DNA of 10,442 nucleotides, taken from positions 1-10,442 of the forward strand of contig QMRC01000021.1 in NCBI GenBank assembly GCA_003649205.1, written 5' to 3'. The translations under genes and the position numbers were made by a program. This DNA is from Thermoprotei archaeon. GTDB taxonomy: Archaea; Thermoproteota; Thermoprotei; Thermoproteales; B15-G16. Shown here piece by piece: positions 4,732 through 10,442 of the stretch. Under the pieces are notes generated by a model. The model searched no databases and was not told the origin of the DNA. It was given only the letters and a program-made list of their open reading frames with translations. Within the stretch, counting starts at the first letter, position 1. Every line of letters begins with the position of its first letter.

Positions 4732-5307
4732 ATGGCTGAGGTTCCCAAGCTTCCAAAGATCAAGGCTGTTGGTAAGAAGGCTCTGATAAGCTTTGTAACA
4801 GGTACAATAACTACAGGTCTATTACGTAATGGTGCTAAGATTCCACAGCTTCATGGAATTGCTAGAGATTGGCTGAAGAGACCAAGGCTAGCAGGTCATG
4901 TTGTAGCAATACCAATGAACTTGATAGCATCTCTATTCGGTAAAGGAGAAGTTAGTGAGCAAGGAGCCTTTGCTCTTGGTTACAGTATTGGTGATGTGAT
5001 AGCAACTGAAGTAATGGATGCTGAGCCCGTTATTCTTGTGTACAATGATAAGATAAGGGTTGAGGGATTCGATGCTAATGCCGAGATAAAGATTATCATA
5101 GATGGTAAGGAGTATGGTGTAGATGCTTTCCAAACCCCAGCAACGTTTGGAACAATTGACACCACGAACAACAAGCTACTAACTGATGGTAGTGGAGTAT
5201 TTGAGGCTAAGTTCAAGGATACCTACGAGCTTGGTAGTGGAGAACACGATGTGTTTGTGTATCAAGTAGGTGCTAAGAAGGCTGGTAGGGTCAAGGTAGC
5301 TCTGTAA
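4732..5307 (+). CDS. Putative virion envelope or coat protein: Gly/Ala-rich apolar helices plus a C-terminal Ig-like domain
   Basis: N-half has three weakly hydrophobic helices. C-half IRVEGFDANAEIKIIIDG...TDGSGVFEAKF...GEHDVFV fits an Ig-like beta sandwich. SD GGGGTGG. Confidence 0.7.
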   Translation: MAEVPKLPKIKAVGKKALISFVTGTITTGLLRNGAKIPQLHGIARDWLKRPRLAGHVVAIPMNLIASLFGKGEVSEQGAFALGYSIGDVIATEVMDAEPVILVYNDKIRVEGFDANAEIKIIIDGKEYGVDAFQTPATFGTIDTTNNKLLTDGSGVFEAKFKDTYELGSGEHDVFVYQVGAKKAGRVKVAL

Positions 5308-5488: not shown

Positions 5489-6721
5489 ATGATTATAGTC
5501 AAGGATTTTCCACGTGTGATACCAGCTCAAGCTTGTCCAGTAGTACAGGCTAAGATCATCGGTCACAACGGTAGGATTCTACGAGTTAAGTCAATAGATT
5601 ACTTCACGAAGAAGGTCATTGATGAGTATACCGTGAACATAACTAGCGATCCATTCGAGTACAACCTTACGTTTCCTACAGGTGACACCAACGAGATTAT
5701 TGTTGGTATCATAACGGTTGAGGATAGCAACGGTAATGTCTACGAATTCTACGAGACGCACATCATTCACATACCAGACAACGAGATTAGGGATCTTGGT
5801 GAAGAATACGAGATCTGGTATATTGCGAAGAATGGCTTTAGTGTCAAGGTCAAGGATACGAGGATGTATATACCAAACGATGGTATCTGCATGATCATAG
5901 CGTGGAAGAAAGGGAAGCTGATTGTTTGGGACGGTACCTACAAAGAGTATACAGGAAGATCAGCATTGCTGAAGCTGAGGTTTGTCGTGAGGAGAGATCT
6001 TGCGAGTGTCTATGCTAACACTATCGATGATAAGGATGTTACTGATATCATCTACAAGGTACCAGATCTTGCACCAATCGTTGGTGCTATTAGACTTGTT
6101 AAGCACATCTTCGAGGATAGGCGATTTACACCTGTAGCAGTTTCAGTTGAGTACGATGATAATAATGTGTATATCGAGGTTACGACACATGTAGATCTAT
6201 ATTCACCAATTGACCTTTGGGGCTTAATCAAAATACTAACAGGTGTCGGTGCTATAGTAGCAGGTGCAATTCTATTGATAGCAAGTGCAGGTGTATCAGC
6301 ACCACTATCATATGCGATGTTCACAGTTGGTGCTATGTCTATAGCATGTGGATTGATATCGATATTCGATGCAAAGCTACAGGAATCACCAAAGCAGATA
6401 GTGGAATATGCAAGATCAGTTGCTGAAGAAGCGAAGCAGAAGAATAGATCGACTAGACAAAAGCTTGAGGACTACCTCAACCAATTGGTTACAGAAGGAA
6501 AGATCACAGAGGATGAGAAGAACAAGATCCTTAGATATGTAGATGAAATTATTGCTACGTCTGAAGAAGCAATGGATGAGCTAGTGAATTCAGTTGATAA
6601 AGCTTACAAGAATGGATATAACGATGGTCTTGAGGAAGGAAAGAAGAGAGCAATTGTATACTCAGCAATTGCAGGAGGAGTAGGTTTTGGTATTGGAGTA
6701 ATTGCAGGTAAGAAGGTGTAG
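5489..6721 (+). CDS. Putative minor virion membrane protein: beta-rich N-domain, hydrophobic hairpin, coiled coil, C-terminal TM
   Basis: Apolar aa ~243-293 with two Gly/Ala-rich helices; charged helical region; C-terminal AIVYSAIAGGVGFGIGVIAG; SD AGGTGA. Confidence 0.75.
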   Translation: MIIVKDFPRVIPAQACPVVQAKIIGHNGRILRVKSIDYFTKKVIDEYTVNITSDPFEYNLTFPTGDTNEIIVGIITVEDSNGNVYEFYETHIIHIPDNEIRDLGEEYEIWYIAKNGFSVKVKDTRMYIPNDGICMIIAWKKGKLIVWDGTYKEYTGRSALLKLRFVVRRDLASVYANTIDDKDVTDIIYKVPDLAPIVGAIRLVKHIFEDRRFTPVAVSVEYDDNNVYIEVTTHVDLYSPIDLWGLIKILTGVGAIVAGAILLIASAGVSAPLSYAMFTVGAMSIACGLISIFDAKLQESPKQIVEYARSVAEEAKQKNRSTRQKLEDYLNQLVTEGKITEDEKNKILRYVDEIIATSEEAMDELVNSVDKAYKNGYNDGLEEGKKRAIVYSAIAGGVGFGIGVIAGKKV

Positions 6722-7123: not shown

Positions 7124-7137
7124 TTGTATATATTTCT
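7111..7137 (+). promoter_or_regulatory. Putative late promoter 3
   Basis: GTCCTACGGA TAATT GTATATATTTCT; 58 bp before ATG 7169; overlaps the last codons of the RHH gene. Confidence 0.8.
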
Positions 7138-7168: not shown

Positions 7169-8512
7169 ATGCCGACTCTTTCTCAATTAATTGAAATTAG
7201 TGATTCGGCTGAGCCAATTCCATCATATGTAACAGAAGATGAAAAGTATCTGTATGCTGTACTTAACTTTGGTGGTAATCCGAATAATCAAGGTAGGATA
7301 GTAAAGATCGATTTGACACAGTCACCACCATCATTAACAGCACTATTGACACACAGTAGACTTGCAATGTGGCAACAGGTATACTTGAAGGAAAAGAACA
7401 AGCTATATGCGTTTGGTGAGCTAGATGATGAGAACGGTACTCAGAGAGCTGGTGTTGCAATAGCAGATCTTAGTAATGATACTGCACAAATAGTGTATCA
7501 TCCAAATACTGGTGACTGTAATGAGTTTATAGGAGTAGCATATGATGAGAAGACTAAGCAGTTCATTGTTGGCGAAAGAAAGGGTGGTGGTGTTACAACT
7601 GGTAGTAATTATCCAAATGGAGGTGGTTTATGGACTATTCCGCTAGAAGACATACTTAATCCAAGTGCTTGGAATAGAGTTCACGAGTTCTCACCATTAC
7701 CAAACGAGTCAGTGAATCCATCAGTGTTTAAGATAGCTATAGTTGGTGATCAAGTATTTGTGATACTAAAAGGGGATTCAATTGCGAGATTGGTCAAAGC
7801 AAGTATATCAGATCTGACAACGTGGGAAACAATTGAGGATCTAGACATTGCTACTGGTATCGAGAAGTGGGGTAAGAGAATAGCCTATGTAAGCAAAGAT
7901 CCTAACACAGGTAATGCTGTACTGAAGTATTCCGATGATGGAGGTGCAACTTGGAATACGATTGATCTTGGTGCATCTCCATCTACTTTGTCAGATTTGG
8001 CAATGCCTGTTATAATGCCGATACTATATGGTAAGTATGCTATTGTGGTTGCACAACACAGTCAAGGTGCTAAGGTTCTGCTAGTCGATATCGATGGAGG
8101 TAGTGTATCGCAGATAGACACGATGACAAATCCGTATTGTCCACACAATGTCGGTACTCAGAGAAATGACAAAGTGTTCATAGGTAATAGTGCTTCACAA
8201 TCACCTGGTTATATCTATCAGCTATCATTTGATACAAGGTATGTAATAGCTATTGCTCTAAGCAAAACTAATCCCGCTCCTGGTGAAACCATAACCATTA
8301 CGGCAACTTTGAAGGATGCAAATGGAAATCCTGTATCTGATGCTGAGATAGAGTTCTATGTTATAACAGCTAAGGTTGATGATAGACACTATGGTGATCT
8401 TATAGGTACTGCTAAAACAGATGCGAATGGAAATGCATCAGTACAGTATACAATACCTAGTACGCTAAAGCAAGGAGATGTGGTAGTATTCAGAGCGGTG
8501 TACAAAGGTTAA
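7169..8512 (+). CDS. Beta-propeller (BNR/Asp-box) protein with a C-terminal Ig-like (Big_1-type) domain; putative receptor-binding adhesin
   Basis: Asp-box YSDDGGATW (7928-7954); blade-like repeats (GRIVKIDL, GGLWTIPL, AKVLLVDI, GYIYQLSF); GETITITATLKDANGNPVSDAEIEF...AKTDANGNASVQYT. Start 7169 is supported by SD AGGGTG and promoter spacing. Confidence 0.85.
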   Translation: MPTLSQLIEISDSAEPIPSYVTEDEKYLYAVLNFGGNPNNQGRIVKIDLTQSPPSLTALLTHSRLAMWQQVYLKEKNKLYAFGELDDENGTQRAGVAIADLSNDTAQIVYHPNTGDCNEFIGVAYDEKTKQFIVGERKGGGVTTGSNYPNGGGLWTIPLEDILNPSAWNRVHEFSPLPNESVNPSVFKIAIVGDQVFVILKGDSIARLVKASISDLTTWETIEDLDIATGIEKWGKRIAYVSKDPNTGNAVLKYSDDGGATWNTIDLGASPSTLSDLAMPVIMPILYGKYAIVVAQHSQGAKVLLVDIDGGSVSQIDTMTNPYCPHNVGTQRNDKVFIGNSASQSPGYIYQLSFDTRYVIAIALSKTNPAPGETITITATLKDANGNPVSDAEIEFYVITAKVDDRHYGDLIGTAKTDANGNASVQYTIPSTLKQGDVVVFRAVYKG

Positions 8513-8523
8513 TGGGTGGTTAG

Positions 8524-8805
8524 ATGCCAACTTATAGCGATGCTGTAGCAAATGTCACTATATCGTATGGTTCACCATCATATGCTGATGCAGTAGCAAG
8601 TGTAACAGCTATAGTACTTGGTTCACCAACTTATAGCGATGACGTAGCAAGTGTAACAGTTGTAACAAGGTCACCATCATATGCTGATACAGTAGCAGTT
8701 GTTACACAGATACCAAAACCTAGGAAAATCGAGAAAAAGCCTTGGTGGATACTGATAGTTTTGGACATCCTCGTTAAACTAGGTCTTTCACGAATTAGAA
8801 AGTAA
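8524..8805 (+). CDS. Four-repeat peptide with a C-terminal membrane anchor
   Basis: Four P(T/S)Y(S/A)DxVAxVT repeats, a PKPRKIEKKP linker, WWILIVLDILVKLGL and a basic RIRK end; SD GGGTGGT. Confidence 0.8.
   Translation: MPTYSDAVANVTISYGSPSYADAVASVTAIVLGSPTYSDDVASVTVVTRSPSYADTVAVVTQIPKPRKIEKKPWWILIVLDILVKLGLSRIRK
8527..8709 (+). repeat. ABAB tandem repeat, 99-bp period
   Basis: CCAACTTATAGCGATG at 8527 and 8626; TCACCATCATATGCTGAT at 8572 and 8671. Confidence 0.9.
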
Positions 8806-8817
8806 CTCCAACACAAA

Positions 8818-8836
8818 TTATTTTTATATTCTTTTC
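8818..8836 (+). terminator. Oligo-T terminator
   Basis: TTATTTTTATATTCTTTT after the 8805 stop. Confidence 0.5.
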
Positions 8837-8841
8837 TCGTA

Positions 8842-8896
8842 AAACCCCCTAGCTAGTTTCGTTTCTCTAGGGCGTGAGTGCTTATATAGGGGTTTA
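8842..8896 (+). promoter_or_regulatory. Recombinase promoter bracketed by inverted AAACCCC(C)TA sites
   Basis: AAACCCCCTA 8842-8851, TATA box TTATATA 8882-8888, TAGGGGTTTA 8887-8896. Confidence 0.6.
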
Positions 8897-8913
8897 GACA
8901 CATATATTCTCGG

Positions 8914-10356
8914 ATGATACATATGTCCTACGCATGGTATCAAAACCTACATCCCAAGATCAAGGAGATTTTGGATAACCTACAGGTTAGAACTTCACAA
9001 CTCCTAAAGCAGTATGGTTCACTACAAAAAGCAGGAAGACCAATCTTTGAATCCGAGGAAGAAGTTGCAGTTGTCTACTATATTGCTAGAGAAATCGCTA
9101 GCTATGCTGAAGTAGCAGGATACCTAAACGTTACCAAGCAAAGTGTCTACAACTGGATCAAGTCTATTGAGAACAAAGGAAAGATAACGATATACGACTC
9201 CAAAACCGCTAAGACAATAATCATTGACTTCACACCTGAGAAAGCTAAGGAGATAATCAACAAGATCACAGCACCAAGTGGAAAGAAGCATGTTAAGGAC
9301 GCTCTTGAAGCTAAGTGCATCAAGGAGTTTGTTGAGAACCCAATCAAAAGGACTAGAAGGGCTCATGGTGTAAGTTATTACAGTCCTGCAAAGGTTAAGC
9401 AGATCATATCGAAAGTGCAAGATCTCATAGACTTCATCAAGGCTAAGAACTTAGATATTCCTAGCAATCCTGATATGTGGGATGAAGACTCGATACGTAG
9501 AGTCATAGAGATGTATTGTCAAGAGAAGTATGAGAATGATCTTCAGAAAGTGCCTAGGTGTATACGAAACATAAAGAAGACCCTTAGACACATACCAAGG
9601 TTTAGCAATTGGTTTAGTGGTGAAATAGGTGCTGAGATATCATTTGCTAGGTTCAAGGAGAATGTACTATTCTATGAGCACTATCTAAGGATAAAGAAGC
9701 TCATGAAAGAAGGTAAGATAGCTGAGGTAGAATGGTTGATTCCTGCATTGCATATTCTATTGGGTTGCAGAGAGGGATGGGGTACACTAACAGCTCAAGG
9801 AAAGAAGCTTAGTGATGTTAAGCTAGATGATGCTTCTAGTAGCCTCATAGGATTGAAATGGAGAGATGCTATCTTCGATGCTAACGGTAACATCATTGGT
9901 TTCCACATCTATGAGCACAAGACTGAGAAGGTATGGTCTCTACGATACAATTGGCTTGATCCAGAAATCCTTGAGAAGGTAACTGAGATATTCAAGAAGA
10001 TGAATCCAAAGCCTGAAGAGAGCGTGATCAAGACAATTCTTAGGTACTATGGAATCAAGATCGAGACCGTATCACAGTTTGCAAATTGGTATAAGAGAGT
10101 ATTGAAATGGATAAGCAAACAGCTCAACCTACCTTGGACATTAACGCCTCACGATATGAGACGTGCTCATTTATCGATAATGGCTGATCTCGAAATACCA
10201 TTGGAGATAGCCCTCAAGGATACAGGTTTTGGAGTGGGATGGGATGACATCAAAACAGCGGTAGACTTCTACCTAAGAATCAGCTCAAGAAGAATCAATA
10301 GAATCCTAGCAAGGGCTGAAGAGATCAAGAAGACCATCGAAGCTCAGCTATCATAA
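8914..10356 (+). CDS. int: Tyrosine recombinase/integrase with an N-terminal helix-turn-helix
   Basis: Catalytic set R286 (LGCREG), K336 (EHKT), H413-x-x-R416 (PHDMRR), W443 (GVGW), Y453. HTH: SYAEVAGYLNVTKQSVYNWIKS. Alternative start ATG 8923. Confidence 0.88.
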   Translation: MIHMSYAWYQNLHPKIKEILDNLQVRTSQLLKQYGSLQKAGRPIFESEEEVAVVYYIAREIASYAEVAGYLNVTKQSVYNWIKSIENKGKITIYDSKTAKTIIIDFTPEKAKEIINKITAPSGKKHVKDALEAKCIKEFVENPIKRTRRAHGVSYYSPAKVKQIISKVQDLIDFIKAKNLDIPSNPDMWDEDSIRRVIEMYCQEKYENDLQKVPRCIRNIKKTLRHIPRFSNWFSGEIGAEISFARFKENVLFYEHYLRIKKLMKEGKIAEVEWLIPALHILLGCREGWGTLTAQGKKLSDVKLDDASSSLIGLKWRDAIFDANGNIIGFHIYEHKTEKVWSLRYNWLDPEILEKVTEIFKKMNPKPEESVIKTILRYYGIKIETVSQFANWYKRVLKWISKQLNLPWTLTPHDMRRAHLSIMADLEIPLEIALKDTGFGVGWDDIKTAVDFYLRISSRRINRILARAEEIKKTIEAQLS

Positions 10357-10403: not shown

Positions 10404-10442
10404 TATTATATATTTCCTTATAATATATATAGAGTACTTTCA
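10404..10442 (+). repeat. Right terminal direct repeat
   Basis: Identical to 1-39; begins 47 bp after the recombinase stop codon. Confidence 0.97.

Follow-up and report, generated by a model that had tools for sequence, protein, structure and literature searches.

A truncated immunoglobulin-like putative spike head and a small repeat-bearing anchor protein as candidate partners in strand exchange on a circular archaeal mobile element

The window, meaning the whole 10,442-nucleotide (nt) stretch analyzed here (contig QMRC01000021.1 of a Thermoprotei archaeon), is a circular mobile element that carries two closely spaced genes, open reading frames 1 and 2 (ORF1 and ORF2). ORF1 encodes a β-propeller followed by an immunoglobulin (Ig)-like domain that has no strand G, and ORF2 encodes a small protein with four copies of a short unit and a likely membrane anchor. 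On balance, the best explanation of this pair is hetero donor-strand complementation, with a unit of ORF2 acting in trans on the Ig domain of ORF1. The two proteins would be halves of one spike, cut within the F-G loop of the Ig domain: ORF1 would be a soluble head made of the propeller and Ig strands A to F, and ORF2 a small C-terminally anchored protein whose N-terminal units would descend from strand G. They would be translated separately, each from its own Shine-Dalgarno (SD) sequence, as a tightly coupled pair. One or more units of ORF2, including the N-terminal one, would insert beside strand F in the Ig domain of ORF1, completing the sandwich and tethering the head to a membrane, either that of the cell or that of a particle of the element, and the extra units could each hold another head, giving multivalency, or form a stalk of variable length. 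Insertion, stoichiometry and topology are the parts of this mechanism that we infer; the idea of four heads on one anchor, which draws on the range of one to six units among relatives, may apply.

The true start of ORF1 is most likely the ATG at 7169, because homologues begin at the equivalent methionine and a GGGTG motif lies 7 nt upstream. Inspection of the N terminus by eye, without a predictor, revealed no hydrophobic signal-like stretch. The AlphaFold2 (AF2) model of the 447-amino-acid (aa) protein, computed with 20 homologues, has a mean predicted local distance difference test score (pLDDT) of 87.4 and presents a propeller, six strands, and then the C terminus. Foldseek matches of the propeller are generic (Kelch, the sortilin Vps10p domain, and the archaeal YVTN propeller plus PKD structure 1l0q, with query-based TM-scores [TMq] of 0.3 to 0.55), and the motifs HPNTGDxNE and PNGGGLW are invariant across the 20 homologues. 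The six strands of the Ig domain span residues 359 to 364, 374 to 382, 393 to 403, 406 to 416, 422 to 428, and 440 to 445, and the protein ends in ...GDVVVFRAVYKG, followed by the TAA at 8510 to 8512.

Comparison with Ig profiles revealed the missing portion of this domain. Pfam matches cover Big_1 at positions 17 to 67 of 93, Big_3_5 at 3 to 71 of 88, Invasin_D3 at 20 to 74 of 98, and MG2 at 13 to 75 of 96, thus ending 17 to 26 positions before the ends of the profiles. As a control, an Ig domain with a cis strand G from a neighboring gene (ORF4 of locus L022; related loci are designated by L numbers) matches Big_1 at 15 to 92 of 93, Big_3_5 at 13 to 87 of 88, and Invasin_D3 at 18 to 96 of 98. 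The match of ORF1 to Big_1 (PF02369; E value of 1.9e-7) scores 31.5 bits, below the curated cutoff of 34.9, a shortfall that would fit a truncated domain. A hidden Markov model (HMM) of 83 positions was built from 11 complete Ig domains found in downstream genes of related loci (cis-Ig HMM). All 23 ORF1 Ig domains compared with it match from positions 2 to 4 through to position 67, which is their last residue; the domain of the window covers positions 2 to 67 and likewise ends at its final residue. Positions 68 to 83, which correspond to strand G of the complete domains, have no counterpart in any of the 23. This firmly shows that the ORF1 Ig domain is devoid of strand G.

The same end point recurs throughout the family. 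A word search retrieved 20 ORF1 homologues of 429 to 447 aa with 33 to 49% identity, which end in the same alignment column, 19 of them with [YF]-K-G and one a residue earlier. Of 50 loci retrieved, 47 of them metagenomic and 3 from genomes, the 24 whose match extends to the C terminus were counted, the other 26 being partial or restricted to the propeller; in all 24 the stop codon of ORF1 directly follows Y-[KRH]-G. A profile search of 1.84 billion protein representatives gave 1383 matches at an E value of ≤0.001, and 17 of the best 150 span both the propeller and the Ig domain. None of these 17 has a strand G: 15 stop at the end of the profile, one (P0031) continues for six residues, and one (P0049) stops at strand F. 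A search restricted to longer proteins found no fused form, returning two partial matches only. Loci L019 and L004, considered as natural fusions with a cis strand G, were rejected as an artifact of tblastn joining; their cis strands belong to downstream ORF3s, and both loci keep the ORF1/ORF2 split. At the level of sequence, truncation before strand G is firmly established as a trait that defines the family.

ORF2 begins at an ATG located 11 nt past the ORF1 stop, in a different frame (offset 2), and the TAG directly before this ATG closes the ORF2 frame upstream, so no single indel or frameshift joins the two ORFs. The split is no assembly error. A contig from run X1, possibly the source sample, covers positions 7900 to 8951 with 0 differences, and a second study (X2) supplied a 202-nt contig that spans positions 8483 to 8684 with 2 mismatches and 0 gaps. 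The ORF2 unit has the form P-[ST]-Y-[SA]-D-x-V-A-x-V-T-x (12 residues) and occurs in four copies, detected by TRF as repeats with a period of 51 nt, 3.2 copies, and 74% matches. A Pro/Lys-rich linker separates the units from a hydrophobic stretch, W74 to L88, with a Kyte-Doolittle 15-mer maximum of 2.09. This stretch aligns with clear transmembrane (TM) segments of the ORF2s of L048, L003, L001, and L002, which makes it a likely candidate for the membrane anchor. The Atlas model of ORF2 alone has a predicted TM-score (pTM) of 0.23 and a pLDDT of 0.51, and the protein is accordingly predicted not to fold on its own. ORF2 has no Pfam or PHROG family at an E value of ≤0.1, ORF1 retrieved nothing from the PHROGs, and Protein Atlas features for ORF2 gave no usable lead, with all matches below 0.9.

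These results bear on most of what had been claimed in a preliminary description of this DNA. It had described ORF2 as having its own SD sequence 11 nt downstream in another frame, four repeats, and a basic tail, and every point that could be checked was correct. Its statement that ORF1 lacks a signal peptide agrees with the N terminus as judged by eye, and its proposal that the Ig domain lacks the last strand is borne out by the early ends of the Pfam matches, the six AF2 strands, and the stop at position 67 of the 83-position cis-Ig HMM. An indel fusing the two genes, which it had raised as a concern, is absent from the contigs of both studies (0 gaps), and the split is kept throughout, in all 20 homologues, all 24 loci, and all 17 representatives. 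The assignment of a TM segment to ORF2 holds as far as the alignment with four homologues goes and is weakened by the length of only 15 residues and by the charged residues D81 and K85 within it.

A protein beginning with a unit follows ORF1 in 23 of the 24 loci, at spacings ranging from a 1-nt overlap to 58 nt past the stop; the contig of the remaining locus, L011, is cut off before ORF2 could appear. Because the ORF2s of L008 and L018 are identical, as are those of L022 and L024, this amounts to about 20 distinct ORF2s. The number of units, counted by eye from the sequences, ranges from one (L012, L013, L015, and L028) to six (L002). Three kinds of C-terminal end occur: a simple TM segment as in the window (four loci, L001, L002, L003, and L048), a TM segment and basic tail behind a Pro-Thr linker and/or Cys motif (eight loci), and an end resembling Ig strand A without a TM segment (10 loci); one further ORF2 is open at the contig end. 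The start of ORF2 lies in relative frames 0, 1, and 2 with respect to the ORF1 stop in 7, 2, and 15 pairs, respectively. Four of the seven in-frame pairs have two to six stops between the ORFs, and a single stop is found only in three near-identical loci. SD-like motifs, identified by eye in the junction sequences, precede the ORF2 starts in the window and in several other loci. The use of all three frames, the extra stops, and the SD-like motifs together argue that recoding is not the general rule and that two separate polypeptides are made. Judged by gene order, ORF2 is shown to be a conserved partner gene of ORF1.

The best evidence that the units correspond to strand G is positional. In L012 and L013, the ORF2s have a single unit and align with the last 50 to 55 residues of complete Ig-anchor proteins encoded by ORF3 of L022 and L039, with E values of 2e-12 and 2e-16. 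One alignment starts at the unit, sets it against the cis strand G, and extends across the Cys motif and the TM segment, and the other starts inside the strand. This colinearity suggests that ORF1 and ORF2 together follow the plan of a head-Ig-anchor protein divided within the F-G loop. The earlier proposal that each repeat supplies strand G in trans gains from the colinearity of the single-unit ORF2s with a cis strand G and anchor; it loses from the modeled disorder of the units in L006 and from a similarity that is not significant, both taken up below.

Two residues of this pair vary with clade. Strand F reads F-R-A, with the Arg at residue -6 from the end of ORF1, only in the clade of the window (the window, L048, and L001 to L004; six pairs). 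The Asp of P-x-[YF]-x-D, examined by eye, occurs only in the units of the same clade and is absent in clades with F-A-A or F-F-A. The Arg of F-R-A and the Asp of the unit could form a cross-strand salt bridge, a weak suggestion that concerns a single clade. Among further homologues, P0008, P0011, P0012, P0025 to P0027, and P0034 have F-[RK]-A in strand F.

Several observations weigh against strand donation by the units. HMMER found no significant match between the ORF2s and the G-strand part of the cis-Ig profile, with scores of about 0. In an ungapped scan with a position-specific scoring matrix (PSSM), the four units of the window were the top four stretches, in one register, with scores of 5.4 to 6.8 bits, but 73 of 500 shuffles reach the best PSSM score of the window units, so that their similarity to strand G is not significant. 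The Ig-anchor protein of genome G038 has a P-W-W anchor similar to that of the window ORF2, and BLASTP gave no alignment between the two (E value of 2.3); the colinearity with strand G is thus seen only in another clade. The hydrophobic stretch of the window ORF2 has just 15 residues, D and K among them, whereas the single C-terminal TM helix of a tail-anchored protein would have about 18 or more hydrophobic residues; it is thus a short and weak candidate for such a helix. Since ORF1 has no visible signal peptide, its meeting with the N-terminal part of ORF2 needs a cytoplasm-facing topology during assembly, which is assumed.

Structure prediction for a relative points weakly in the same direction. 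An AF2 model was computed for the natural in-frame read-through product of L006, with an input of 162 aa consisting of the Ig domain, the TAA read as Q, three spacer residues, and ORF2, and with an alignment of 21 rows of which just 2 cover the ORF2 part. The Ig part is confident, the three units (aa 98 to 148) have pLDDT values below 50 and form no strand, and a C-terminal A-like segment (151 to 159) forms a strand with block pLDDT values of 67 and 56. In VIA, the model matched 6rpt_A (C5 MG4; Z score of 11.4, root mean square deviation of 2.6, 102 aligned residues), 6tqd_F (intimin D00-D0; Z score of 10.8), and 1f00 (Z score of 9.5). These alignments to macroglobulin (MG) and Big_1 domains extend to residues 160 to 162, placing the A-like segment, and not a unit, in the position of the last strand. 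The model counts weakly against the units as donors, its weight being limited by the shallow alignment and low confidence. A complex prediction for the ORF1 Ig domain (aa 352 to 447) with ORF2 residues 1 to 66 gave an ipSAE of 0.07 twice and a mark of 0.32, without controls, and speaks neither for nor against binding.

The rival that survives best, and that we regard as possible though rather doubtful, is that six strands suffice for a stable Ig domain and that ORF2 is an independent small membrane protein. Its repeats would form a stalk or a self-associating β structure, such as a fiber shaft of varying length, and the protein would bind ORF1 through a different surface or not at all. This would agree with the AF2 model that left the units away from the Ig domain, with the nonsignificant similarity of unit to G strand, with a unit number that varies from one to six as in shaft repeats, and with the confidence of AF2 in the Ig domain without strand G (block pLDDT of 81 to 96 save for one loop). 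It leaves unexplained why ORF1 stops at the F-G loop in 24 loci and 17 representatives when other Ig domains of the same loci keep their strand G, and why ORF2 always opens with a unit right behind ORF1. Moreover, the single-unit ORF2s are too short for a shaft and yet are colinear with strand G and anchor.

A second rival assigns the completion of the ORF1 Ig domain to the C-terminal A-like strand of ORF2, where present, and leaves the P-S-Y units with another role; the ORF2 of the window, having no such strand, would bind differently. The placement of residues 151 to 159 in the read-through model of L006 favors it, albeit at low confidence in that very segment (block pLDDT of 56 to 67). We consider it unlikely, since 12 related loci and the window have a truncated Ig domain without any A-like end, and since the A-like ends have a better-fitting acceptor. 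In related elements, gene borders also fall between strands A and B of an Ig domain, where a small ORF or an Ig ORF ends in an A-like strand. Of the 10 loci whose ORF2 has an A-like end, 6 (L004, L009, L010, L022, L024, and L039) continue, with an overlap or within 35 nt, in an ORF that starts at Ig strand B. The ORFs starting at strand B hold their own strand G, followed by more units and/or an anchor.

A third rival holds that programmed frameshifting or stop codon read-through yields a single ORF1-ORF2 protein, or that the split is a sequencing error or a pseudogene. The short spacers and the three near-identical in-frame loci with a single stop speak for it. It is highly improbable given the spread over all three frames, the two to six stops in four of seven in-frame pairs, the TAG abutting the ORF2 start of the window, the SD-like motifs seen by eye, the gap-free agreement of contigs from two studies at the junction, and the conservation of the split at 28 to 50% identity.

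The split between strands A and B has a further instance in a distant relative, L056 (G038:C99, minus strand). There, a second head of 423 aa ends in an A-like segment and is followed by a 129-aa ORF that comprises an Ig domain from strand B onward, a linker, and a P-W-W TM anchor resembling that of the window ORF2. This pair is a mirror image of the head-anchor split, and its 423-aa head is unrelated. On the other side, no Ig ORF lies within about 300 nt after the A-like end in L006, L008, and L018. Because splits recur at the border of A and B, an exchange of strands between the products of different genes is the most economical explanation for the whole group, and such exchange may be a general way in which these elements join their parts. 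A broader and more speculative proposal, to which we give limited credence, is that crenarchaeal mobile elements assemble surface spikes from parts that swap single Ig strands, the strands being encoded at the borders of genes. In this scheme, heads ending at strand F would be captured by tandem strand-G units on small anchors or adaptors, and adaptors or other heads ending in strand A would complete Ig domains whose own sequence begins with strand B. Several exchangeable heads could then share one anchor, in a natural, heat-stable and possibly covalently locked "tag and catcher" kit.

The contig that makes up the window carries an exact 39-bp terminal direct repeat (positions 1 to 39 are identical to 10404 to 10442) and, because of this identity of both ends, represents a whole circle of about 10,403 bp, with a G+C content of 39.1%. 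It is a small archaeal mobile element and constitutes contig 21 of a host bin of 2.07 Mb that is 93.8% complete. Nearly all long ORFs lie on the plus strand, and no tRNA genes were found in the window by ARAGORN. The longest ORF, of 480 aa, encodes a protein with a helix-turn-helix (HTH) and integrase-like features that is 39.7% identical to the product of the gene adjoining ORF2 in L001. A tblastn search with it against a phage collection gave one weak match, to a record labeled STIV1 (28.5% identity over 42% of the length), and the same collection returned nothing for ORF1, for the 410-aa protein of the window, or for a 354-aa protein of L021. The 410-aa protein, with membrane and coiled-coil features, is related to a protein of L048 (25% identity over 173 aa); together with the 191-aa protein, it may be a further component of the particle or membrane. 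A megablast search with the whole window retrieved no match, a scan of viral contigs found no relative, and a clear family member is present in only one of 40 relatives of the host genome.

Two side observations concern the neighborhood of the spike genes in related loci. A conserved protein of 165 to 198 aa with a weak match to Lectin_C_term (E value of 1.7e-4) is encoded downstream of these genes in L007 and L013. In L021, L019, and L007, a common anchor module composed of a Pro-Thr linker, a Cys-x-P...F-C-V-G motif, a TM segment, and a basic tail closes different proteins of one locus, namely, ORF2, a protein with five Ig domains, and a Cys-rich one of 223 aa. The coordinates of all features are collected in Table 1.

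Table 1. Coordinates of the features in the window and, where a locus is named, in related loci
Feature	Position	Strand	Description
ORF1	7169-8512	+	447 aa; ORF listing begins at 7124
Beta-propeller head	7169-8227	+	ORF1 aa 1-353; all-beta in the AF2 model
C-terminal Ig-like domain (Big_1/MG type)	8243-8509	+	Strands A-F only; end ...FRAVYKG
ORF1/ORF2 junction	8510-8523	+	ORF1 TAA, 11-nt spacer with SD-like GGGTGG (8514-8519), TAG (8521-8523)
ORF2	8524-8805	+	93-aa small anchor protein
ORF2 unit 1	8527-8562	+	aa 2-13, immediately after the initiator Met
ORF2 unit 2	8575-8610	+	aa 18-29
ORF2 unit 3	8626-8661	+	aa 35-46
ORF2 unit 4	8674-8709	+	aa 51-62
Hydrophobic stretch W74-L88 and basic tail SRIRK	8743-8802	+	Likely C-terminal membrane anchor
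191-aa protein	4732-5307		Upstream of ORF1; no family match
410-aa protein	5489-6721		Upstream of ORF1; hydrophobic segments and coiled-coil-like C-terminal half
480-aa protein	8914-10356		N-terminal HTH (HTH_23, E 7.8e-5); weak tyrosine recombinase match (Phage_integrase, E 0.097)
Split between strands A and B	L004:1854-2592		
Split between strands A and B	L010:1998-2704		
Split between strands A and B	L022:2642-3566		
Split between strands A and B	L039:7272-8196		
Lectin_C_term-like protein	L007:3430-3927		Downstream of spike genes
Lectin_C_term-like protein	L013:8886-9482		Downstream of spike genes
Protein with common anchor module	L021:2894-4042		
Protein with common anchor module	L019:1230-2990		
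Protein with common anchor module	L007:2858-3271		

Donor-strand complementation is established for the chaperone-usher pili, in which an Ig-like acceptor lacks strand G, as also described in a preprint on archaeal filaments (bioRxiv 10.1101/2022.04.26.489512). The pair described here resembles these pili (FimA/PapA) in having an acceptor without the C-terminal strand G and a proposed donor that is the N-terminal segment of another polypeptide. It differs in that donor and acceptor reside on two proteins, which would yield a tethered complex, whereas every pilus subunit is both, which yields a homopolymer. Furthermore, the proposed donors are in tandem (one to six), the donor protein is membrane anchored, and no signal peptide is visible. 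In the element, where no ORF exceeds 480 aa, no gene for a PapD-like chaperone or an usher pore was identified, and no Pfam match to either was found among the eight larger ORFs, the smaller ORFs and the host genome lying outside the scan. Archaeal bundling pili are reportedly crenarchaeal, heat-stable, secreted homopolymeric filaments with an N-terminal donor strand and signal peptides. The archaeal threads (Saci_0406) are described in the same preprint as crenarchaeal, heat-stable homopolymers with an N-terminal donor strand, a signal peptide, and an Asp-Asn isopeptide bond (bioRxiv 10.1101/2022.04.26.489512). In threads and bundling pili, each secreted subunit is donor and acceptor, whereas here the head and the anchor are separate and are encoded on a 10.4-kb circular mobile element; no sequence relation to these filaments turned up, and no search aimed at one was made.

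The Ig domain itself belongs to the same fold class as the Big_1/macroglobulin-type domains of intimin, invasin, and complement MG, according to VIA and to Pfam Big_1. Those domains are complete, with strands A to G in one chain, whereas the domain of ORF1 corresponds to positions 17 to 67 of the 93 in the profile. A man-made counterpart of such a split is SpyTag/SpyCatcher, derived from the CnaB2 domain, in which a peptide containing the last strand docks and is locked by a Lys-Asp isopeptide bond. In the window, a Lys is present in YKG and an Asp in the units; YRG or YHG takes the place of YKG in other clades, whose units lack this Asp. The literature searched, with limited coverage, contained no case of strand donation in a spike of a virus or mobile element.

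The principle of donor-strand complementation is known from bacterial and archaeal homopolymeric pili. What would be new here, on a reading that we hold to be probable by a modest measure, is its use between two different proteins and with donors in tandem. If so, the same principle would join a receptor-binding-like head to the tiny membrane anchor of a mobile element, and the adaptors of relatives would carry donor strands of two kinds. The resulting pairs of peptide and domain would be natural and heat stable and thus of use for protein engineering. For the elements themselves, strand exchange would account for a conserved, odd-looking gene split and would provide a simple assembly rule for the spikes of elements of uncultured hyperthermophiles.

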